Virus record (IMG/VR): IMGVR_UViG_3300033463_000049
Coordinates: 38,217-102,216 of that record
Source: a virus
Lineage: Duplodnaviria > Caudoviricetes
Strand: one strand, 5' to 3'
DNA length: 64,000 bases
A program made the position numbers and the translations under genes. How positions within the stretch are numbered: position 1 is the first letter of the stretch; every line of letters starts with the position of its first letter. Below, piece by piece: positions 3,101 through 62,534 of the stretch. Under the pieces are notes generated by a model, which was given only the letters and a program-made list of their open reading frames with translations, ran no database searches and was not told where the DNA came from.

Positions 3101-3671
3101 TGTAATGTAGGATAAATACGGAATCAATCTAACGTACGATTCTAATTCTTTGGACAATAATGTAATTGTTTTCAACGATAGTGATCCACAAATCACACTT
3201 TCCGGATACATCGATAGAACTAGACAAATATCATTATCGTCGTTATCGGAATTTAACAACTCTTCTCCGTCCGGTTATTATATATTAAGAGGAGACGTTT
3301 AGGATATGGAGTATAGATCTGAAGGTTCTTACAATTCTTCCGAAACGGAATATCTAAACAATTGTTAGAACTGCGTAGTATATATAGATCGTGCAAATAG
3401 TTTAATAAAAACAGTTGCTGACAGAGACGTTTCTTACGGATACAACTATGCTTGTGACGAATCTACAAATATTGTCGATAGTACGTGTTATTTTGGACTA
3501 AGCGATTGGGGTAAAGGTAAATTATATTATATTGCAAGCGCTGCTTCCGAAGGATTATTGCGCAATTATAACTTGGATTATTAGTGGAGTACGCAAAATA
3601 GAAATGCGTATATTGACGTGAAAGGTGCCGCTCCTGTTATTTCTGGATACATTCGCGGAGTTCAATCTTAA
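198..3671 (+). CDS. Ring/neck protein N-terminal domain fused to ~970 aa of Ig-like/MBG-like adhesin repeats (code 15, ~1157 aa)
   Basis: Track ORFs 198, 888, 1590, 1995 and 2580 are in one frame separated by TAG; first TAA at 3669-3671. N-terminus is a clear paralog of the 3839 gene. Repeated TTAPTAKSLTYNG and TWSNTxFxYDG units. Confidence 0.85.
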
Positions 3672-3684
3672 AATATAATAGACT

Positions 3685-3831
3685 ATGAAAATTGATTTTA
3701 CAGATACAACACAATTTGAGTTGTCTGATTCTATGGCAGAGGAACTTGTGGATCTTGCAATATTGATGGCGTTGGAGAACGTAGAGTCTTAGAGAGTTAA
3801 AACTAAACAATCAACCTTAACATTAGCATAA
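3685..3831 (+). CDS. 48-aa ORF corresponding to the missing C-terminal helix of the ring protein
   Basis: MKIDFTDTTQFELSDSMAEELVDLAILMALENVES(TAG)RVKTKQSTLTLA matches the C-terminus of the 3839 product (FECNDSMAEELISLAITYALENVESNRL). Confidence 0.8.
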
Positions 3832-3838
3832 TAACGTT

Positions 3839-4756
3839 ATGATGTCACATAAAGATATATATACAAAGTTTATGATTGAATACGACAAGGCTAATGTTTT
3901 GTCATCATATCCATCGTTGACTGAATATGAAGTGGCTACGTTTTTAGATAAGGCATATAGCGCATTAATTGCGCAAAAGGTTACTGGTAACAATCCCCGT
4001 TTAATGGGCTTAGAAACGGATGTAAAGGTCATAGAAGACCTTTCTCCGTTGATTGTTACGGTAGAACTTCCGCTTTATCACAACCAACAAGCTGACGATA
4101 GTTCAGTAAACCTGTACTCTAAGAATATAATGTACGTAGATCTTCCAAAAGACGACACCGATGTAAATGCGTATGTGTCTACTGAATGGAATTTTGGCGA
4201 TACATTGCCTTCAAGATTAGGATCTGGTGGTGCAAGCTAGACGTATGCTGTTTCGCAATATGCAGAATATCTGTACTTTATATCGGCGGCTTTGAAAAGA
4301 ACAATGGATCAGACCCCAATGGATGGTCATTTAGAAAGGGCTTTGCCAATAAAGCTGGTGTCGCATCAAATGGCTAAGAGTTTTTTAAATAAAGCTTATA
4401 ACATGCCGTGGATAAAACAGCCGGTTGGATATATAGAATAGAACAAGTTGTATATTATATACGACCCTTCAGATAATTAGTTTAATAATTTAAGTTGGGT
4501 AAACGATACACTTTCTATAACCTATATAAAGAAGCCGAATCCTTTTGCAAAAGATCTGAGCAATACTTCAAAGTTTCCATCTAATGTCGGATATTATACG
4601 TTGTTTGATGCTACTACACCAAATGAATATTATATATTCGAATGTAATGATTCTATGGCGGAAGAATTAATATCGCTGGCCATTACATACGCACTTGAAA
4701 ACGTAGAATCCAATAGACTATCAACAAAACTTAACATGAGAGGATTAGAATCATGA
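3839..4756 (+). CDS. Tail ring/neck protein (code 15, 305 aa)
   Basis: Reads through 3 TAGs to TGA at 4754-4756; paralog of the 198 gene; crAss gene order. Confidence 0.85.
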
Positions 4757-5666: not shown

Positions 5667-6362
5667 ATGAGATGCATTGACCTTATCGCAGCATTTGAGC
5701 TTGAGATAAATAAGCTTGACGATGCTCTACAAAAGCCGGTCACTGATGATTCTATATATTGGTTAAATCAAGCTATGATGAAGCTTGTGAAAGAAAGGTT
5801 TAACGGCAATTTGCCACACCGGACATCATACGAACAAAATGAAAAACGCACTAGAGATTTAGTCAATCTGCTACGTGAAGAGATACATGATTTCGCGGTG
5901 GACTACGAACCGGTACAACACAAGTCATATGATGAATACGAATACAATTATCCATCAGACATGATGTTTGTACTAAATGAAGATGTTGTAATATCAGATA
6001 CTCAAGGTGGTCACGAGATGGACACTTGTGTATTTGAATGCACAGCAGACAACTTCATGTATAGAATAAATAATAGTCTTACTGATTTCCATTATAGGTA
6101 TCATCGTGCAAGACCTCTGAGAGTTAGGACACAGACTGGTTTCAGACTCCTAACTGATACGAAATATAGAATTAAACAATATACTTTGGGCTACCTTAAA
6201 TTGCCCGAAGAAATAACCAATGAAAATCCTTTTAAAGAATATCAGGATTTTCCAGATTACATTTGGATGGAGATAATCAAGATTGCAGCTTAGATGTATG
6301 TAGAAAATCAGGCTGATCCTAGATATCGCACCATTACAAATGAAGTAAATACACAAGAGTAA
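5667..6362 (+). CDS. Putative tail ring protein (code 15, 231 aa)
   Basis: One TAG at 6291, then TAA at 6360-6362; LGYLKLP...WMEIIKIAAQMY ring-like motif. Confidence 0.75.
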
Positions 6363-6465
6363 ACATTCGTTTATTCTAAATTCAAATAATTTAAACGTGG
6401 AAACCCCAGCTAGTTAGGTCTAGACATTGAAATATAGGGGGAGTAGAATAAATTAATTTAAAAAT

Positions 6466-7578
6466 ATGATTACATACGTAAATTCAGTGTTTGTTAGCAA
6501 CGTTGATTCTAGCAACATTGTAACTATTTCTAGCAATTCTGACTTTGCTAGCGTTAGCAAGGGCAAGTTCGTGTTCCTCGATATCGATTCGAACACTTCA
6601 ATTAGTGCTACTACCACTCGCTTTAAGATTGGTATGGGTACCGGTAAGACCATTTCAAACGACAAGGGCTCTGTAGCCGAGATCAAGTGGTCTAACATCA
6701 TCAACGTTGACGACATCAAGGGTTGGACAGCAAGTTCTTATGCTGCTGACACCGAGGACGTTTGCTACATCAACCTCGCCGGTGCTACTGGCCTGATTGG
6801 TTCTGGTAAGACTTTGTCTCAGAAGGGCAAGCGCATCATCGTTCGTCTGACCTATAAGGATATGCCTCATCGCTATCGCAAGTGGACTGAGAGCTATGAG
6901 TATGTTACCGAGGACGGTGAGACCGTTGCTTCTATCGCTACCAACATCGCTAAGATGATTAACAAGGAAGCAAAGCGTGCTCGTGTCATCGCTACTGTAG
7001 GTGAGATTAACAGCACTTCAGCAAGCGCAACCGCTACTGTTGGTTCTGCTTATTTCCATGCAGACTCTAACTGGGACAATGTTTCTGCAAGCGCAAACAA
7101 CAACACGATTGTTCTTACTGCCATGACTTATGATGATGACAACTCTGTTGATTCTCTGAACTGGTACAACAAGGTTCGTTTCAATGCAAACATGTATTAC
7201 ACGGATCCTTCTGCCGAGGGTTGGGAGTCTATCAACAAGCACTTCATCACTGGCGCAACTATTACCAAGGTTCCCGGTAAGACCTATGAGGCTTCTGCTA
7301 AGCTCGTTCGCGATCGCGAGGCTCAGGCTATGGGTTACGACGGAATCCTGAACCGTGGTGAGGGTACATGGCCCATCATCAAGCCCGGTATGAATGTTGA
7401 TCTGACCAAGCACTACAATGTAGTTACGCTTGAGTTTGAGAACATGTATCGTACCGCTGACGACCTGTTCCGTAAGACCAAGCAGACGGTTGAGATTTAT
7501 ACCACTGCTGCTACTTCAGGCATTACGACTGAATTGGCTAAGCTTACGAGCGCAGTAGTTGACACCAACAAGGAATGA
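6466..7578 (+). CDS. Probable auxiliary capsid protein (370 aa)
   Basis: Strong high-expression codon bias (AAG/GAG/AAC/CGT), position after the ring genes as in crAss-like phages, followed by a terminator; no TAG. Confidence 0.7.
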   Translation: MITYVNSVFVSNVDSSNIVTISSNSDFASVSKGKFVFLDIDSNTSISATTTRFKIGMGTGKTISNDKGSVAEIKWSNIINVDDIKGWTASSYAADTEDVCYINLAGATGLIGSGKTLSQKGKRIIVRLTYKDMPHRYRKWTESYEYVTEDGETVASIATNIAKMINKEAKRARVIATVGEINSTSASATATVGSAYFHADSNWDNVSASANNNTIVLTAMTYDDDNSVDSLNWYNKVRFNANMYYTDPSAEGWESINKHFITGATITKVPGKTYEASAKLVRDREAQAMGYDGILNRGEGTWPIIKPGMNVDLTKHYNVVTLEFENMYRTADDLFRKTKQTVEIYTTAATSGITTELAKLTSAVVDTNKE

Positions 7579-7586
7579 TTTTAACT

Positions 7587-7627
7587 AAGCTGGGGTGGGC
7601 AACGCCCATCTCGGCTTTTTTATTTTA
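7587..7627 (+). terminator. Rho-independent terminator
   Basis: AAGCTGGGGTGGGC-AAC-GCCCATCTCGGCTT hairpin followed by a T-tract. Confidence 0.85.
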
Positions 7628-7632
7628 TCGCT

Positions 7633-8346
7633 ATGAAAGTAAGAATAGGAAATGACATTCGCCTGCAGGTTCAATTGAGCTTTGCAGGAGCACAGGAATC
7701 TGTTAATATTCTTTCTCTGAAAGCCGTTTTCATAAATAGAACACTTAAGGATGAGTTTTTGAAGGAGTATAAGAAGAAGAACAGATTCATACACAGATTT
7801 CCTATCGAACCTTTTTCTGACGAATTTCAGCCTACTGAGTACAACATTCATTCTACCGGCAATCCCAGATATAGAGCTTTCGTTATGAATCAATATAACG
7901 GCTTTGGTGTATACCCCGACTGGAAAAATGTAATGCCGTTTAAGAAGATGGATATTACAGAATACGTATCTAAGGTTTCGAGAACTCAAGATCCGAGTTC
8001 TGTAGTAGCTGTATTCCCAGCAAGTATTCAAAAGTATGCCGGTGAATACGACCTGATCGTAACCGCACAGGTATACGACGACGGTTATGAGGATAATGTT
8101 CGTACTGTAACAGTAGACTATAAAAATGTATTCGAACTTGTTTCTTCTAGTGAAGAAAGTGATGTCAACGATGCAGTACAGATTAGCATAAATAACATTT
8201 CCGAACCACCTTCTACACATGATTATTTCGTAATATCCGGTTCTTATGACAACAATGAGATACTGTTGAGGAGAAATGATAATGCTACAATTCATGTAGA
8301 CATAGATTCTGTGAGCGGGTGGTACGAACAACCCGAGGAGGATTAA
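7633..8346 (+). CDS. Hypothetical virion-associated protein (237 aa)
   Basis: Intact ORF in the structural operon; beta-rich; N-terminal RIGNDI. Confidence 0.7.
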   Translation: MKVRIGNDIRLQVQLSFAGAQESVNILSLKAVFINRTLKDEFLKEYKKKNRFIHRFPIEPFSDEFQPTEYNIHSTGNPRYRAFVMNQYNGFGVYPDWKNVMPFKKMDITEYVSKVSRTQDPSSVVAVFPASIQKYAGEYDLIVTAQVYDDGYEDNVRTVTVDYKNVFELVSSSEESDVNDAVQISINNISEPPSTHDYFVISGSYDNNEILLRRNDNATIHVDIDSVSGWYEQPEED

Positions 8347-14400: not shown

Positions 14401-15876
14401 TTCTAGTATAACGCACTACACAACTGGTATGATGCAACATTTCCGGCTGTAACTAAATGTGGAACTGTATATAGCGTTCCAATGTTTATGGACATTGACT
14501 TACACGGACAGTACGGAACTACGTATACAAAGAACATAGCAAAAGGATATTATATACAAGATAAAGCGGCTCAATTTGATTCATACATACAAGAGACAGA
14601 TGCTTATTTGTATAATACTGCTTACAATCAACATCCGGATATAATAAAATACTCTACGAACGATAATCGTGAGTATATCTCACAGCAATACGATACCAGA
14701 GTTCATTATTCTGAATAGAAAACTAATAATGAAGATATAGATAGTTGGACACAGTTCAGAGCAATGAACTTCTCAGATGTAGATTCCAGATTTGGTGAGA
14801 TAACGGGTCTTAAGTTGTTTAAAGACAAACTTGTATTCTGGCAAGAAAATGCAACTGGAGTTTTGGCTGTCAACGAACGCGTGATACTTCAAGATGCAAA
14901 CGATACACAAGTTACGCTCGGTACTGGTCAAGTGTTGGATAGATATGATTACATAAGTACTGTATACGGTATGAAGAAAGACCAGAGTACGGCTTGTATT
15001 TCTAACGACGCACTATATTGGTGGGATGGTAACAACAGAGAGTTGTTACAATATGCTGAAAAGTATTCTGTAGTACCTTTGTCGCAGGTTAAAAATATAC
15101 GCAACTATATAAACAACAGTGCTGAAAATGACCATCCTCATGTATACTATAATAATAAGTATAAAGAGGTTGTATTCCAGTGTGTAAACAACGAAGCTGT
15201 GGCATACAGCGAGTTATTGTAGAGATTTACTTCAGTCTATACGGCTATTGAGAACAACCAAAAAGGATTTATTCCCACATACTCAGCTTGTGTGAACGAT
15301 ACTATATATATTACGGATGGAAAAACTATTGAGACAGACAATACAGTTTCACAAAGCGGATCTAAGTTGTTTGGATATAGCGCATATCCTTATATAAAGT
15401 ATATAGTAAATTCTAACAATACGCTAACAAAAACTTTCGATACTCAAATAATAGGCGGAGAGTTGTACGGAGGAAGTACTCGACACGAATTAGTGGAAGG
15501 CAGTAGTTATGGAACCCACAAAGCCAACGGAAAGGATGTAAATTCTGAAATGCTATTCCAAAATCAACCAAAATTGATAGACGACACTCATAATTCTCTA
15601 ACACAAGCTAAGCATATTTTGCATGACGATGGCGTGTTAAAAGACTTGGAAATGCGTTACAACACTCCGTTAAAACAAACAGCTCATACTACTGGTACAT
15701 CTTTGAGTAATAGAGAATACGATTATAGACTTAACATTCCGAGAGAGACTGGTAATGAAGTTTACGGCGGAAGGTTAAAGGGAAAAACGATGCAATGTGA
15801 ATTATGGTCTACTAATAACTCCATTGACTTCTCATTGCAATACATAATAACTAAATATAGAATGTCATGGAGTTAA
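11467..15876 (+). CDS. Muzzle / tail stabilization protein (code 15, ~1469 aa)
   Basis: Seven track ORFs in one frame; NTFVGGMNTD N-terminus, FRPGETYRFGVIFYD, DVDSRFGEIT, GRLKGK C-terminus. Confidence 0.85.
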
Positions 15877-17801
15877 GAGATAGAAAATATATAAAGAACA
15901 GAAAACAGCTTCCTAAATTTGATCCGGGTAAGCCGGACACTGGGGTAGGTGCTGGCAATAATTGGTAGAATATAGATCCAACTTCTGCTATTACAGGTAC
16001 TCTAAATACAGCAGCGTCTATTTATGACGCACACCAATTTACTACTACATCTGACGACTATATCAACAAATATGGGTCTACTAACTCTAACATAGGTGGA
16101 ATCGGTTATACTAAATACAACGATATAGACCGTGGTAGAGAGATGGATATAGTTGGAAGAGAAAATACATAGAATACGTTTAAGACAACGTTAGCTGGTG
16201 TTGGCGCAGGTGCTGCAATCGGTTCAATCATACCGGGCGTAGGTACTGCAATTGGTGCTGGAGTCGGCGCTCTTGTTGGTGGTTTAGGAGGCCTTGTTGG
16301 AGGTTTGTTTGGTGGTTCTCATCGTAAACATAAGGCTCGTCAAGAAATGAGAGAAGCTCAGCAAAGAGTTGACAACTATAATGAGATGAACAGATCTGAT
16401 GCACTCACTACTTCCCTGCAGCTCAAACAAGCAGAAAAGTACGGAGATAGCAGATCTCAGTTGTTGTTTAGTGCAAATCTTGGAAAGCCGAGTGGGTTTA
16501 ATCCAAGCAAGGCCGTTTCTAGTTTAAAACCTGTGCACACCGTTGCAGGAAAGGTAACAGCTCCGCAAAACTCGTTTACTAGACTACATGAAGGATTGTG
16601 GAACAAAGATGAAGAGCTGGCACACTTTGTAGACGAAGGTCCGAACGATACCGCACCTAGTTATTTAAGAGATGGAGACGTCGCCTTCGGAGCTACAAAA
16701 AATCCAGAGACCAATAATAAATTTGAAGACGATGCTGAACCGTACATTCGTATTATGGAAGCTATAAACAAAAATAGACCGAAGGGGGATGGTCCACTTG
16801 GAGAATCGTCTAGAAAAACATACGACATGGCCGTTAAGAATATAAAGCAGAATGCTGTAAATAATTTAAATCATTTAGAAGATGTTATGAATGCTACGAT
16901 GGCATATAATAAATATAATTGCGGAAAGCCAAAATTTGATCCCGGTAAACCAGATACCAGGTCCTCCTTAGAGAAGAATGGCCTAGCAGATGAATACGGA
17001 CTCACATGGTGGGGAAACGCAGTCCCTTCGTCGATAGGGGCATTAGCTAGCCTCGCATAGTATTTTGAAGCAAAAGGAGATAAACCGTATAGACCAGATA
17101 CATATGTGCCAAATAGATTTTAGGATAAAGGTTTAGCTCTCCTTTCCAGCCTTAGAATAAATCCATATGGCACAATGTAGCAGTTAAGAGACGCAGAAGC
17201 CCGTACAAATAGTGCAGTTACTTCTTCTGGTGGATTGAGTACGGCTTAGAAAAATCTAGCAAGAATTGCTTCTCTACATGGAACACAGCAGCAGATTGGT
17301 AATATGTTGAATAGCATACAAGCTCAGAATAACTCATATTTCTCCAATTATGCAAATGCTTTGTTGGCACAAGGACTCGGAGATGCCCGACGTAGTCAAG
17401 CTGCTAAACAGTATGATCTTGAGTATTATGCTAAAGCACATGCTGCAAGACAATAGATGCAGCAAATGGGTATGCGTAACTTCTTGGATTATATTCAGCA
17501 GTATGGCAGAAATGAGTTTGAAAGAAAGAACGCTCTTGCAAATATCGGAATGTACAAACAGTCTATTGATATTGAAAGGGAGAAATTGGATAGATAGTTC
17601 CCGAAAACGAAGGCACAGGATGCTTCTTCTACTACATGGACTGGCGGAATACCTTATGTAATTGCCCCTGAGATATTAGATAAGATTCCAGGAGCAGTTA
17701 CTCAACCTACATTACAATTTGTACCGGGACCACAAAACTGGCAAAAGCCAAGGAATACGTGGGCAGATAACATTATGAACCAATACGGATGGGGACGATA
17801 A
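15867..17801 (+). CDS. Internal virion cargo/ejection protein with glycine zipper (code 15, 644 aa)
   Basis: GVGAGAAIGSIIPGVGTAIGAGVGALVGGLGGLVGG TM/gly-zipper; Ala/Gln-rich helical C-terminus; TAA at 17799-17801. Confidence 0.75.
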
Positions 17802-17802
17802 T

Positions 17803-19929
17803 ATGATATACGCTTATGATCAGAATATACAATATCCAGTAAAGGATTTGTATGATAGCTAGATGATAGCAATGAGTATTGCTGCAGCTAAGGATATGTA
17901 TGAGAAGGGTCAATAGGAAATCAAAGAGTTTAAAAAGGAATTTGGAGATTTTTACAGTCCGTTTAAAAAGGACATGGCTAGGTATGGTCAAATCGTAAGC
18001 GGAGTAAAAGACACCATTGACAATCTTTACGCAAACGGAATAGATCCAATTAGAAGTGCAGAAGGTAGGGCTGCTGTCAGCAGAGCTATTCAGAGTGTTG
18101 ATCCTGCTGAATTGAATAACATGCGCGCAAATGCAAAAGTTGGATATGCGTATTTGGATGCATTGCAGAAGTTAAATTCTCAAGGCAAATATGATCCAAA
18201 CATGCAGAATGCGTATTTGAGATCACAAGGCTTGCCGACATTTGAAGAGTTTAGTTCTGAGGGTGGTAACGCATGGACCCAATCTTCGCCAATGGAAGCT
18301 ATAAACCTCAGAGACCTAACCTCTCCGGGCTTTGCGCATAGAACTGCACACGAGCTTACCAGGGAGCAAGCTATGCGAGAAATGGGATCTTCATATGACC
18401 CGAGAGCAAAATATACCGGATTTACATATGACGATCTGTTTGATACGGCCGGAATGCTTGTTCCAGGACTTCGCGGAGATTGGAGAGCTGAATATTTCAG
18501 GGATATTTCTGCACAAAAAGCACTGGCTAAGAATCCAAATGCCACGCAAGCAGACATTGATAAATAGTTTTAGAGTGATATTGCTGAAGCAAACAGATAG
18601 TGGATAATAGAGCCGAGTGGAAAATTGGACGATTACTACAAAGAGGCTGGATTGCAATTAGATAGGCAAAAGCTTGGATTGGAAGCTGCGAGAATGGCAC
18701 AAGCACAGCGCAATGCAGACAGATCTTTCCAATTAGAACTGCTTAAAAATGGAATAGGAATAGATCCAAAGACTGGAAGATTTGTTGCCGCCACACCATC
18801 AGACATGAGTGGATATGTCCAACCGGTAGAACAGAGGTAGATTGATAAAAATGTAAAAGGTAGAGCAGACGCTCTCGGTAGTTATCAATAGGTACTATAG
18901 TTATGGATGCAACAGAATCAGAAGACAATTGACGACTACGAAAGAGAAAAGCGTGCGAGTACTATCGGATATAGAGAAGAACAGACGCCTGCTACAAAAA
19001 TTTCAAAATATCCAAGTGCAGTAGGTGGGGTTATTCCGCAATTTGGTAACACATCTGGTACGATTACTAAAAAAGTTCCGTACATAAAAAATGCAGCATC
19101 TGATGAGCGACTTGCTAAATTAAAGAAAAACGCAGACACCGCTAGATACAATATCAGAGAAATAAAAAAGATGATGTCTGGTGGAGTTGAACAGCTTAAA
19201 CGTAGAGGTTACTTGGATGCAAACGGATTCCCGACTGAAAGATATACCAAACTTGTTACAAAACTGTATCTCAATAAGGATAGAATGGCGGGTTTGTCGC
19301 AAACACAAAAACAGTAGACTGTAAACGGATTGTTTAACTCGCTATATTCTGCTGGCGATTTGGCGGCTGGTGATTTCAAAAATTGGAGAGATTCTCAATT
19401 TGCTTCTGGTAATTTAGAGACGCTTCCTGGAACCAAAGATAAGAAAATGAGATCTGTATACACAGGAGAATATACCTACGCTCCAGTATACAAGAATGCT
19501 GCTCTTGGTGTAAAGATGGGCGAATCTTCGATGGAAATTCGAATAAATAATTGGCTTACTAATAATATACAGGCATGGGACTTCTCCAGTAAAAAGTAGG
19601 ATTATTTCTTACCTGGTAAAGGCGGAGAAAAATATGCAACCGAAGGTCCTCTGTTAATATCAGAAACGTCGTTAAAAGAGTTTGCAAAACTGTATGGATA
19701 TAGTCTTTCAGATGTAACTAAAAAACAGAATCTCCGCAGACATTCCTATAAAAAGGAAGGATCTCCGTACGAAACTGTTTATTACGAAATTCCAGTATTT
19801 AAAGATTTGAATAATAACGGAGGCTTTAATTATTATAGAATAAACGAAACTGTGAATAAAAAAGACTTCGGTTCGAGTTAGAGTGCAAAAGACAGAGAAG
19901 ATGCACAACATCAGTCTGTAATGAATTGA
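17803..19929 (+). CDS. Putative internal virion/ejection protein (code 15, 708 aa)
   Basis: Four track ORFs in one frame joined by TAG; TGA at 19927-19929. Confidence 0.7.
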
Positions 19930-42100: not shown

Positions 42101-43194
42101 CTGCATGTGACTTCGCATCCAAATCAACTATAATGGTGACTGTACTGATGTCTCATAGATTTATGAACGGTAAATTCATGACAAAAGAAGACGTCTTAAA
42201 TACTCTCGAGGCATCTACTGAAGAAGGTCGCAAACGACTTTTAGAGCAGTGGGAAAAAGGTAAGAATTTATATTCAATATTCTCAGTAAAAGATCGCGAT
42301 TTACAAATAGATAAAGAGTATGCGGAAGCTTTTGAAAAGGTAAGACATACTGTATATAGTAGAATAAACAAAACTGCTGAAAATGCGGACGGTATGGCAA
42401 CTGAGACACAGAAGGCCGCAATGACCACTAACTTCTTTGGCGCAGCAGTACTTACTCACAGACAGTATTTACCACTGATGATTCAACAGCGTTTCTTACC
42501 GATGACTTATGATTTTGATATGTAGATATATACACAAGGTCAATATATAGTAGATTGGTAGTTCTTTAGAAATGTGTGCATATCTTCTGCGATCGATTTA
42601 ATAAAATCAAAATCAATACAAAGCGCTATCAACACGTGGAAACAAAATTATGACATTTTCATCAACGATACGTCTTCTGAGGAAAATTGGAAAATATCAA
42701 GAGCGCGTAAAAAGGCGTTGAAGAAAACTATAACAGAACTTTCAATGTTTTTTATAGCAGTCGTTCCTCTCGTGCAATTAATATGCATGTTTGCTGACGG
42801 CGACGATAAAAAAGATGATTTAGCATTGCAACTCGCCGCATATGTTGCAAGGCGTGTACAATGGGAAACATTCACTCCATATAGAATGAGTGATATTTTC
42901 AACAATGTTAAATCACCTTCTGCACAAACTGGCACGCTCGATAAAGTTTCTAATCTTTGGAGTCAGTTAAGCAGAAGAGCAATGCCTAGAGCAAGCCTAT
43001 TAGACACGTTGCTTGGATTGGAACAAAATAGTGAGTATAATGATATTATAATGAGAGGTGTTTACGAAGGACATTCGCGAATGTATAAAGCGCTAATGTA
43101 GCTTACACCTTATCACAACTTATACGAACAATGGTACGGTTCAAAGCAAAAACGTTCTTATTACGAAAAACAAATTATGCAATTAGATAATTAA
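36181..43194 (+). CDS. Large ejected polyvalent protein (code 15, ~2337 aa): ART-PolyVal with nested HD domain, zincin, helical C-terminus
   Basis: Ten track ORFs in frame; FFNWFGDW...SKVVDENGEPLVVWHGS...NQIKH..NLGTFD; AAMFHDAAKP; LHEVVH; TAA at 43192-43194. Confidence 0.85.
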
Positions 43195-47177: not shown

Positions 47178-47333
47178 TGGGAATTATGGGATTCGAACCC
47201 ATACTGAACTTCGCTACAGTTTGGCGCTTTTGTCTTGATGTGTACATCCCTTTCGGTTCCGTACAATGGTAACATCTCAATACACGTTGTTCCTTACCTC
47301 CTAATGTTAGTGCTACCGTTACACTAAATTCCC
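47178..47333 (-). ncRNA. tRNA-like RNA 1 (156 nt): acceptor, D and T arms; anticodon arm replaced by a multi-hairpin insert
   Basis: GGGAATT/AATTCCC+A; D arm GTGT-AACGGTA-GCAC; T arm ATGGG-TTCGAAT-CCCAT. Confidence 0.75.
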
Positions 47334-48197: not shown

Positions 48198-48258
48198 TAG
48201 ATATGGTGAGACTCGAACTCACTGTAAGCCACCACCTTAGACGCTCTCTTACATATCT
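48198..48258 (-). ncRNA. tRNA-like RNA 3 (61 nt, no D arm)
   Basis: AGATATG/CATATCT+A; T arm GTGAG-TTCGAGT-CTCAC, identical to that of RNA 2. Confidence 0.65.
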
Positions 48259-53887: not shown

Positions 53888-54039
53888 TAAGCACCGCGGA
53901 ATCGAACCGCTCTCCTGTTCGTGCAGAAGAACCATCCTAGTGTACAAAACTGTATCGGGGTGTTCAACTCTCGTATTACATTTTTCCGCTTGCTACGAAT
54001 TTCGCGTAGCGATCTTTCATTTGTACTCTGGTAGTGCTC
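53888..54039 (-). ncRNA. tRNA-like RNA 4 (152 nt)
   Basis: GAGCACT/GGTGCTT+A; T arm GCGG-TTCGATT-CCGC; internal GTACAAA/TTTGTAC and GCTACG/CGTAGC stems. Confidence 0.55.
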
Positions 54040-54872: not shown

Positions 54873-54911
54873 TGGATTAGTGGGGTTCGATCCCACCTAG
54901 CGTACCAATCT
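54873..54911 (-). ncRNA. tRNA-like minihelix 5 (39 nt)
   Basis: (A)GATTG/TAATC(C)+A, 9-nt linker, GTGGG-ATCGAAC-CCCAC. Confidence 0.45.
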
Positions 54912-55489: not shown

Positions 55490-55557
55490 AAATTATATAG
55501 TGATTTAATTAAACTTCTTGATAACTTATGAATTCGAGAGCTCGTTTACCTACTTTG

Positions 55558-55643
55558 TCCCTACTATCTTACTCAAGGGTAATAGGGAACAGAAAGTGTA
55601 GTGTAACACAGGTACAACCTTGCTACTATATACACTTTCTGTT
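55558..55643. promoter_or_regulatory. Tandem long hairpins in intergenic region
   Basis: TCCCTACTATCTT/AAGGGTAATAGGGA and a perfect 13-bp AACAGAAAGTGTA/TACACTTTCTGTT stem. Confidence 0.55.
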
Positions 55644-55775
55644 AATGCTATGTTATTACTTCATAAACGTTAAGTTTACGGTATAAGACGTCGGATTTCC
55701 ATCAAAAGAGATTAAAGTGTCATACATACAATATGCAGTATAACGTGGCAGCTACAAGCTCCAAATAATCTACTT

Positions 55776-56343: not shown

Positions 56344-56970
56344 TTAGTCTTCAACAATTGTTGCCTGGACAGACTCAACAGAGTTCTTGGTACGTTCGGC
56401 CTTGAACTTACGAGCCTTGTCGATGTTCGAGTTCTTGGTATCGATGATCATCTTTTTCCAAAGCTGAAGCTTCTCGATAGCCTTGTCCACGCGAATGATT
56501 TCGTTATCATTCAGCGCGTTCAGCTTGTCAAGCAGACCATCGGGATCAGCAAAGATCTTGCTGCGATCACCTGCCAGAGCCTGAGCGAGAATGGCGTCGT
56601 CACTTGCATCAGAATCGATGCGCATGTCGCCAGTGATGGGGATAATAGCCTCCTGCGAGAAGACCTTATCGCCAACCTGCTTCTTGCGACCACGGTTGAT
56701 GTATACAACCGAAGCGCCGTCAGCCTGCTCACCGACTTCTACAGCAACGATGTCCGTACCAGTCAGCTTGAAGCGGCGCGGACTGCGGTTCAGAACCAGA
56801 TCCAGGTTGTTGTTGTTTTCAGAGTTTACTACTTCTTCGTTGTGGCGAAGGTTTGTGTCTTCCTGCGTAGCGCGGAAGAACTGCAAGCCGAACGACTTAC
56901 CTACGTTGGCAAGTGCTCGGCGGTTGTTTGCTACGACAGCAGCATTAACTTTCAGAGTTACTTCGTTCAT
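56344..56970 (-). CDS. Hypothetical protein (highly expressed codon usage)
   Basis: 208-aa ORF with strong C/G-ending codon bias. Confidence 0.75.
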   Translation of the reverse strand: MNEVTLKVNAAVVANNRRALANVGKSFGLQFFRATQEDTNLRHNEEVVNSENNNNLDLVLNRSPRRFKLTGTDIVAVEVGEQADGASVVYINRGRKKQVGDKVFSQEAIIPITGDMRIDSDASDDAILAQALAGDRSKIFADPDGLLDKLNALNDNEIIRVDKAIEKLQLWKKMIIDTKNSNIDKARKFKAERTKNSVESVQATIVED

Positions 56971-57019
56971 TGTTAAAATGTCCTTTTTGATATCGTTCTT
57001 GATTGAACCAACGACATCT

Positions 57020-59100
57020 TATTAAAAACTATGCACACTTTAGGCGGTGCGTTATTAGCCTTTATACGGTTTTAATTTCCGTCAAAATATAAGTTTCTTT
57101 CGATTATTTGATACAATGGCACGATGACACTGTATGTAAGTCTCCTATCCCTGTGCCAGTAGTCCTACTGGCCGCTTTGTTTACCTTCAAGCTACTTGCT
57201 ACGTGAATAGACAAGGGGAATCCAATGGTAGGATTAGCTAAGCCCGTCAATGAAGAGAATCCCATTCTTAAAGCTATGAATGACAGGTTGTCGAATCAAC
57301 GACATATAATCTACTTGAATGTTATTTTATAGGTATAAAACATAACCGAAACGATATAATCCCGGCTGCGTACATTACGCATTTGACTCGTTGGCGGCAT
57401 TTCATTTCTGACTACCGTTCATGGAGTATCCCACAAAATTGTATGATTTCTTTCAATGTATTTTCCAGATAATTGAGAAATCATGCGCTGTTGTACAGTC
57501 TTGCGATACTGATTAGGCACAGCTACCCCAGTTCTTTTTTAACGCACAGAACAATCAATACCTGCGTCTACATTCAGCATAAGGCATCTCGTATGTAGAA
57601 ACGTTTATTATCGAACGGTCTAGAGCTCCAGAACTCATCACGGACCCACGGCTTTTTGTTGTGCATTCAGCTTTGCTGCTGTCTTCTGTTTATAGTGCAC
57701 GAATATGGAGACTTCAACTCATACCTACTCTTACTCTTGTCACCCACTACATCTTGCTTTTCACAATTCTCCGAGACAGGGAGACGTGAACGCTAGCTAC
57801 TCACTAGCACCTGCATGCGATTAATCACTGCGTCTGATGGCTACGATATAGCTGCCTTGTGAATAATTTCTGTATTAACTTCTACCTTTCGGGGGACATA
57901 TAGATTTGCAGTCTATACTTTAACCCTGGTTAGTTCATAACGGTTGGCACTCAAGTTTCTCTACATCCCATATAAGATGGCTACTGCTTCCCATACAACG
58001 GGAGCTAACGGCTTACTACTCCGCTTATATAACGTGGTATACTTGGTAGAGGGACACTTAATTTTTGTTAAACGTGTTAGTTATCTCTAATTTCCTACGG
58101 CTTACTTTCTTGTGCTGTGTTGTACATTTCAATCTACTAAGAGGACTCATATAAGATGTGTGGTCTTCCACACCACAAATTTTAATGGGTACTACCCAAT
58201 CTTATAATTTACCACCAAAGTTAGTACGCACAATATCCTATCCGTGTAAGGCTAGGCGGATCTCTTGCAACGCTGGCGTGCGCAGTGTCGAATCAGCCCA
58301 TCATGACTTATTTTTGTTCTGATTGTCAAGGAATCATCTAAATTTCGTTTTGCGGAAAGTATTACAAATCGTCTACCATTTGTAAGTGACTGTCTACCAT
58401 CAGACTTATGAACGCGGTCTCGTGTCGCTATCCTCCTGCATCGAGGATCTGGTCATTTTGCTTTTATATCCCGCACAAACGACCAAAGCCAGGCGGTCTA
58501 TCTTCAACACATTTTCCTCAGTACCCCATCCCCGGTGACCCAGTGGGACCGTAGCCTCAAAGGTGGTCATTCAGTAATCGAAACTGAAAGGATTTCTTCA
58601 AGGACCGTAGTTACGGTACGGCGTAGATTGTCAAGCCATCTACTTGGCTAATATGCTCAGATAAATTCTTCACTCCCTTATATACCCGGCTGGTTGTCCG
58701 TGGACTCCAGGTAAAGGACTAAGCTACGACTAAGTTAAAAGGGGCATTCCCAGTGTGCTCATGTGAGATTTGGAATCTCGTACAGTCCTCATAAAACCGC
58801 ACTTTTACATGTTTCATCTCGTGTACGTTATACTATTATTCGCACAAATAATAGTTTGTCCGATACGGTTCGTTTGTCTTACTACCTGCTGGTGTAAGCT
58901 TGCGCCTTTTTTCTACTATCCATCCTCCAGTCGGTTCTCGATGGCCGAATCGGGTTGATACAGCGCTAACCCGAATACCAGGGAGTTTTTCAAACTCTGA
59001 GGTCTTCCACAGGTCTTTCAGGTTTTGCCTTTGGAGCTCCCCCTATTTCACTACTGTCAAGTAAGTTTGGACTCGGTGTGCATACAGGCTAATGAGGCCT
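57020..59100. ncRNA. ~2.1-kb non-coding, hairpin-dense region; candidate large structured RNA(s)
   Basis: No credible ORF; long-range complementarity between 57125-57145 and 57707-57742, plus many local hairpins. Confidence 0.55.
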
Positions 59101-59113
59101 GCACTTATAGCTT

Positions 59114-59557
59114 CTAAGGCTCGTCGGACACCACGGGATGATCCGTCTTTGATGAATAGACCTGATTCCCATCTATGATGAGCACAACACTGTGTGTTTC
59201 ATCAGACTCATCGATCTGTTCATCTCCCGGGCTTCTGTTTTTAACAGGCGTGACTTCTATCTCTCTCAAACTATCGAGAGGGACATAAATCGTGTCCGTC
59301 GTACTCTGGGGCACGGGTACCCGTATGTACTTTATTTTTTCAACTAGGACAGTGTCGTGTTGAACAGTGTCCAAATTAATACTCTTTGCCGCATCGAGTT
59401 GTAAATCGAGTGGCAATTGTCCGTTATAATTCCAGCTAGGAATCGTAGCAGCATGCAACGCGTTCTGTTGAACTGCGTCGGACTCAATGTTTGTAACCAG
59501 CGAGTAGCCCATATAGGCCATTGCCAGACAACAAAGAGCTGTCATAATTTTTCTCAT
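59114..59557 (-). CDS. Exported/membrane-anchored hypothetical protein
   Basis: N-terminal signal-like hydrophobic segment; ends in TAG followed by AAG CTA TAA. Confidence 0.65.
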   Translation of the reverse strand: MRKIMTALCCLAMAYMGYSLVTNIESDAVQQNALHAATIPSWNYNGQLPLDLQLDAAKSINLDTVQHDTVLVEKIKYIRVPVPQSTTDTIYVPLDSLREIEVTPVKNRSPGDEQIDESDETHSVVLIIDGNQVYSSKTDHPVVSDEP

Positions 59558-62495: not shown

Positions 62496-62534
62496 TGGGC
62501 CGTGGGAATACGAATCCCGTTACGTTTACGACCC
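62496..62534 (-). ncRNA. tRNA-like minihelix 6 (39 nt)
   Basis: GGGTCGT/ACGGCCC+A, 9-nt linker, GGGA-TTCGTAT-TCCC. Confidence 0.55.

Follow-up and report, generated by a model that had tools for sequence, protein, structure and literature searches.

The window analysed here (64,000 nucleotides, the final 64 kb of a 102,216-bp contig) contains a stretch, 57019-59107, that is the longest ORF-free run of the whole genome when TAG is read as Gln, and this raises the question of what it encodes. The phage belongs to the Crassvirales, family Suoliviridae (delta crAss-like), with Oafivirinae as the best subfamily match. The assignment is based on the non-coding DNA and the neighbouring proteins, which are without matches other than Crassvirales. 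Reading TAG as Gln raises the long-frame coverage from about 0.6 to near 1.0 across much of the genome, and the phage is therefore recoded. An ARAGORN search of genome G000 identified six tRNAs and no amber suppressor, despite the assignment of TAG to Gln.

The nearby genes code for a family-B-type DNA polymerase (PolB), DnaB and an ECF sigma factor, and every neighbouring gene is on the minus strand. The order is ECF sigma factor, 2-TM protein, 492-aa protein, ~150-aa protein, the ORF-free stretch, proteins of 208, 185, 182 and 260 aa, PolB and DnaB. The stretch is flanked by:

56344..56970, minus strand: downstream gene, 208 aa, 113 homologs, no family
59105..59557, minus strand: upstream gene, ~150 aa, hydrophobic stretch at the N-terminus, TAA end at 59105-07 if TAG is Gln

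The 208-aa protein has no match in Pfam, PHROG, NCBIfam, PDB or Atlas, and its AlphaFold model is uninformative (pTM 0.26). The TAG of the upstream gene lies in the loop of a covarying hairpin (59105-59125, minus strand). Its position is taken by AAG or CAG in some relatives, and all end at a TAA three codons later. A code-dependent C-terminal extension is possible.

A hidden gene does not account for the gap, because the ORFs called in it vary in strand and place between genomes. About 30 close relatives, gathered via the 208-aa flanking protein, are similar over the whole gap. In a G-test with APC, 14 pairs (12 of them canonical, range 58779 to 57157) reached E<=0.05 against a tree-based null, with E-values that are coarse because only 12 null alignments were used. 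For nine pairs, the 5' and 3' sides each require as many parsimony steps (3-7) as the pair itself, indicating repeated simultaneous change on both sides. Alifold of the whole gap gives 72 helices with 400 bp, and 182 pairs show compensatory change. Ten local helices in the 57120-57745 region are 96.2% paired versus 84.5% when shuffled, a value that none of 500 shuffles reaches, and 37 of their 55 pairs are double-changed. In the domain 57951-57694, the corresponding figures are 96.9% versus 86.4%, with double changes in 20 of 34 pairs. Since these helices were picked from the same sequences in which they were tested, the replications weigh more. Motif scans of IMG/VR yielded 138 loci, 125 of which match a reference gap. 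In the first replication set, comprising 27 Oafivirinae (55% mean identity, largely separate from the first set), 12 local and 4 mid-range helices have at least two compensatory pairs, whereas permuting the pairing rules in five ways leaves 0-1. Such helices number 8 in 9 Loutivirinae, versus 0 under permuted rules.

The gap thus has a conserved secondary structure and no conserved ORF, together with the same gene context family-wide and collinear conserved motifs. Extensive covariation-supported structure without a conserved ORF is one mark of the large structured phage ncRNAs, and we regard it as nearly certain that the feature is a structured RNA. Folding energies computed from single sequences do not stand out (z -1.4 to -0.4).

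The initial annotation had noted a conspicuous RNA candidate here, and its core idea, a large, conserved, structured phage ncRNA, is upheld by the covariation, whereas its boundaries and closing helices are not. It had placed a ~620-nt RNA at 57120-57745, which is the last third of the ORF-free gap. Conservation runs across the entire gap, 59130 to 56973, and makes the feature ~2 kb long, three times the proposed size. Taken by itself, the 620-nt piece is no more stably folded than its shuffles (z -1.30 on the plus and -1.36 on the minus strand). The piece was thought to be closed by three nested long-range helices (57125/57738, 57132/57720 and 57138/57707). The motifs are indeed present at these positions, and all 18 pairs are Watson-Crick. 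However, dinucleotide shuffling produces comparable chains of 18 bp or more, in 87 of 100 shuffles of the whole 2,143-nt gap and in 43 of 300 shuffles of a 665-nt piece, so that the helices are no better than chance. They are also unconserved: in 22 homologs that are 60-80% identical to the window, they are 77.1% paired versus 78.0% when shuffled (494 of 500 shuffles at least as high), with double change in 2 of 18 pairs, and their 3' arms are deleted in some relatives (L036, L031, L049).

Most of the nested-helix arms have better partners elsewhere. The segment 57745-57694 belongs to a separate domain, closed by 57951-57947/57698-57694, and makes up its 3' half. Within this domain, 57725-21 pairs with 57875-71, the segment 57751-42 with 57855-47, and 57720-57708 is a local hairpin rather than a long-range arm. 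On the other side, 57135-57128 pairs with 57118-11, making 57135-57111 a local hairpin as well. A pairing of the 57742-38 arm with 57286-80 is likewise not supported, and alifold assigns other partners to both segments. The three-helix closure is thus refuted as a conserved fold. A stand-alone 620-nt RNA closed by these helices, which can form in this one genome, has hardly any probability, since they are at chance level, unconserved and in clash with covarying helices. The check on a homolog alignment that had been suggested did reveal strong covariation, in local helices. Two smaller hairpins of the original proposal belong to these: both 57172-57155 (double changes in 4 of 7 pairs) and 57381-57367 (4 of 6) are real and covary on the minus strand.

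We strongly infer that the RNA is read on the minus strand and consider this very likely, not the plus strand as had been written, since the G-U pairs and GNRA loops point that way. Beside Watson-Crick anchors, G-U outnumbers A-C (84 vs 38) in the minus-strand reading. GNRA-capped stems number 92 on the minus versus 23 on the opposite strand, and T-loops 27 versus 16. The orientation of the neighbouring genes, all of them minus, points the same way. For UNCG-capped stems the bias is reversed (12 on the minus versus 54 on the opposite strand), probably in part as the mirror image of GAAA loops.

The structure starts at the stop of the upstream gene, and the last helix of the main body is 57311-06/57107-02. 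Next come an A/U-rich spacer, a pseudoknot, and a hairpin that covers the region of ribosome binding for the 208-aa gene. In 5' to 3' direction of the RNA, the layout is:

57100..59125, minus strand: whole structured non-coding region, ~2 kb, by conservation and covariation, ORF-free
59076..59125, minus strand: 5' hairpins, the first overlapping the TAG/TAA end of the upstream gene
59101-59097/59089-59085, minus strand: second 5' hairpin, conserved loop
58750..59063, minus strand: domain 1, family-wide motifs GAGAATATG, CAAAAGGTA, GAGAACCGTCTGG
59057/59009, 59003/58977, 58966/58902, 58854/58833, minus strand: domain 1 helices
58845-42/58758-55, minus strand: domain 1 pseudoknot-like pairing
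58498..58724, minus strand: domain 2, helix 58724/58672, modules swapped among relatives
58663-59/58503-498, minus strand: closing helix of a 165-nt subdomain of domain 2, which holds hairpin 58622-58604 and a T-loop hairpin (~58590-58570)
58097..58498, minus strand: domain 3, most conserved block, 80-87% identity in relatives
58484/58451, 58448/58430, 58385/58362, 58336/58320, 58300/58253, 58285/58268, 58245/58097, minus strand: domain 3 helices
57694..57951, minus strand: domain 4, 257-nt multibranch, closed by 57951-47/57698-94, replicated
57918/57898, 57875/57721, 57865/57732, 57852/57746, minus strand: domain 4 helices, with T-loop-like hairpin 57720-57708
57345..57681, minus strand: domain 5, hairpins 57681/57668, 57645/57617, 57486/57441, 57381/57367, 57366/57345, middle variable
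57102..57311, minus strand: 3' domain, closed by 57311-06/57107-02, closing motifs kept in Loutivirinae too
57303/57290, 57256/57184, 57235/57219, 57172/57155, 57135/57111, minus strand: 3' domain helices
57033..57061, minus strand: H-type pseudoknot (57061-58/57045-42 and 57050-46/57038-33), close clade, follows the A/U-rich spacer
56976..57019, minus strand: hairpin around the ribosome-binding region of the 208-aa gene, kept in both Oafivirinae and Loutivirinae

Domain 4 holds the upstream arms of all three long-range helices of the initial annotation.

The architecture is a chain of 60-260-nt domains. Helices spanning more than 300 nt do not rise above the null, and the data therefore show a domain chain and not a single global fold. 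A helix closing the 5' and 3' ends (59093-83/57064-54, from alifold) is confined to the close clade and competes with covarying local helices. Two further long-range helices, 58359/57437 and 59063/57312, are plausible in the close clade and show no covariation. Relatives swap or duplicate whole modules, while the total length stays at ~2.0-2.3 kb in Oafivirinae and Loutivirinae. At 58945-58920 and 58560-58500, seven relatives (L026, L028, L048, L049, L051, L054, L017) carry alternative modules at the same site, and one structural module is found at either of two positions among close relatives. Such replacement suggests recombination of RNA domains. One of the "family-wide" motifs is among the modules exchanged by close relatives.

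The chain could be a polycistronic array of smaller independent RNAs that are cut apart post-transcription. Covariation that ends at spans of ~260 nt, the A-rich linkers between domains, and the swapping and duplication of modules among relatives would all fit such an array, and tRNA-like acceptor/T-arm elements elsewhere in the operon could mark processing. However, total length and motif order are constant despite the module exchange, no domain has a second copy in the genome, and a non-exhaustive look at the motif hits found no domain standing alone. We consider an array unlikely, and give about an even chance to mainly one ~2-kb trans-acting molecule. A profile search also found no second copy of the RNA as a whole in this genome.

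The tRNA-like acceptor-plus-T-arm elements are on the minus strand at 47178-47333, 48198-48258, 53888-54039, 54873-54911 and 62496-62534, and could possibly be processing marks. They are uncalled by ARAGORN, which identified no tRNA within the window. Two relatives (L014, L017) have true tRNAs at about the site of the 53888 element, just upstream of PolB.

A syntenic gap of about 1.85-2.48 kb is present in all five Suoliviridae subfamilies, namely Oafivirinae, Loutivirinae, Uncouvirinae, Bearivirinae and Boorivirinae, and ~2% of each ~100-kb genome is given to this unannotated structured RNA. A nucleotide profile built from the close relatives gives alignments of almost full length in other Oafivirinae genera (E 7e-168 to 2e-93), and partial ones in Loutivirinae. 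For Uncouvirinae, Bearivirinae and Boorivirinae, synteny, short blastn matches and motifs suggest that the gaps are homologous. Five short motifs keep the same order between about -2050 and -750, each motif being present in three or more of the distant subfamily representatives. Blastn gave no match beyond Suoliviridae and unclassified relatives, and one exact gapped motif pattern had no matches in 185,579 prokaryotic genomes.

The constant gene context could indicate a giant cis-acting intercistronic leader for the downstream replication genes, working by antitermination, ribosome recruitment or tRNA/code sensing. The element is co-oriented in the operon and in every case precedes the same set of genes that leads to PolB and DnaB, its 3' end consists of a pseudoknot and an RBS-enclosing hairpin, and the TAG/TAA at which the upstream gene ends is overlapped by a covarying hairpin. 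On the other hand, there is no match to T-box, riboswitch or leader families, the A/U-rich spacer splits the main body from the RBS module, and known leaders are much shorter than this. We regard a leader role for the whole element as improbable. The hairpin at 56976..57019 is probably a cis-acting leader, and the last 90 nt (pseudoknot and RBS hairpin) probably form a leader of their own for the 208-aa gene. A promoter scan was at chance level (10 vs 8.6).

The location within the replication module (PolB, DnaB) would also be compatible with a replication origin that has a structured primer RNA of the ColE1 RNAII or T4 R-loop type. Iterons or long repeats were not found, the GC content slightly exceeds the genome mean, with no AT enrichment, and there is no skew switch at the element, the extremes being at 43101 in the window and at 15569 in the genome. 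An origin is thus very improbable.

In agreement with the initial annotation, which could not assign a known class, an Rfam search had no match to GOLLD, ROOL, OLE, introns, RNase P or tmRNA. Even at permissive thresholds, Rfam models had no match in the window gap and 11 homologous gaps, while tRNAs, a group I intron and a tmRNA nearby were found in the same searches as positive controls. For RNase P RNA, tmRNA, SRP, 6S and rRNA, there was no Rfam match or ARAGORN call. An ORF-less group I or group II intron or a decayed mobile element would have some plausibility in delta crAss phages, which have many group I introns (PMC7886860). However, none of the 12 loci matches an intron family, while a real group I intron is found nearby (L044:961-1250). 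Moreover, no gene is interrupted, the flanking genes are separate and complete, and the element is fixed in the family, so that we give this explanation almost no weight.

GOLLD and ROOL are the precedent for large structured phage RNAs (PMC12286853). By analogy, the RNA appears to be of their kind (large, phage-borne and modular), yet a member of neither. Like GOLLD, it is phage-encoded, large, multi-domain and covariation-rich, and has conserved and variable parts. GOLLD is often encoded close to tRNA islands; here, L014 and L017 have tRNAs ~3 kb downstream of the RNA, and the window itself has no tRNA but tRNA-like elements at 53888 and 54873. Another trait of GOLLD is an RNA-only oligomeric nanocage. 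Unlike GOLLD, whose Rfam model (conserved 3' region) has no match even at E<=10, it is ~2 kb and not 800+ nt long, and is embedded in the replication operon of one phage family. ROOL is likewise a phage RNA with many helices and pseudoknots, and the earlier 620-nt size fitted it (an example has 659 nt, PMC12286853), but there is no Rfam model match, the element is three times longer, and no shared motifs were detected. OLE is also a large conserved RNA encoded beside a membrane-protein gene. However, it is bacterial (Bacillota) and ~600 nt long, its Rfam model has no match, and oapA is not adjacent here, the neighbouring proteins being without Pfam or NCBIfam match.

In the crAss-like phage phi14:2, abundant early long non-coding RNAs have been reported (bioRxiv 10.1101/2020.03.07.982082). 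What they share with the RNA discussed here is location: both are long, intergenic and upstream of PolB in crassviruses. However, homology was found neither in sequence nor in the flanking protein, and of the two regions in phi14:2 one scores as a tmRNA, whereas the RNA here does not. The region concerned (L058:4031-4502, NC_021806; RF00023, E 4.7e-15, 46 bits vs a cut-off of 47) is the second half of an intergenic region called a non-coding RNA of unknown function (bioRxiv 10.1101/2020.03.07.982082). The crAss genomics literature examined has no mention of non-coding regions. A literature search, with most subscription journals outside its reach, found no description of the RNA, and the family is undescribed in the sources searched.

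Our preferred reading, to which we give slightly less than an even chance, is that the gap encodes a giant multi-domain ncRNA of Suoliviridae, a stable trans-acting scaffold or oligomer. The RNA would be co-transcribed with the operon from the ECF sigma factor to DnaB, and would then be freed by processing, or its fold would shield it from decay, so that, as a stable scaffold, it could accumulate in the infected cell. Tertiary or intermolecular contacts may come from conserved unpaired motifs, T-loops, GNRA loops and pseudoknots, with the variable hairpins at the periphery, as in GOLLD and ROOL. It might act in trans as an oligomer or with adjacent-encoded orphan proteins. As a guess, the likeliest target would be tRNAs or ribosomes, as parts of the translation apparatus of a cell forced to adopt TAG as Gln, although a translation-related target is in itself rather unlikely. 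A bolder version, one RNA machine of rRNA size (~2,000 nt), scaffold or ribozyme, that is a Suoliviridae-wide core gene and acts on host translation in infection by a recoded phage, is doubtful. If true, this machine would exceed GOLLD in size more than twofold. Should it be one molecule, the RNA would rank among the largest non-ribosomal structured RNAs of prokaryotic systems.

Within the gut crAss virome, delta crAss phages form the largest group, with 13-18% of crAss reads (PMC7886860). An open question in PMC12286853 is whether large natural RNAs commonly form nanocages. Although Suoliviridae were uncultured as of PMC10136315, the RNA can be made by in vitro transcription, which would allow a direct test of the nanocage question (PMC12286853).

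Other non-coding features were seen near the element and elsewhere. A second intergenic region of ~285 nt (55490-55775, minus strand) has a strong predicted fold (~-81 kcal/mol), and relatives have a gap of similar size at the same place. Outside the window, genome G000 C1 has further long ORF-poor stretches at 6229-8111, 16552-17862 and 3436-4376, the first two of which hold tRNA genes. In Loutivirinae, RAGATH-9 and RAGATH-20 RNAs, a permuted-tmRNA-like match and a group I intron are located just upstream of the sigma gene (L042:273-430, 1365-1466; L044:961-1250).
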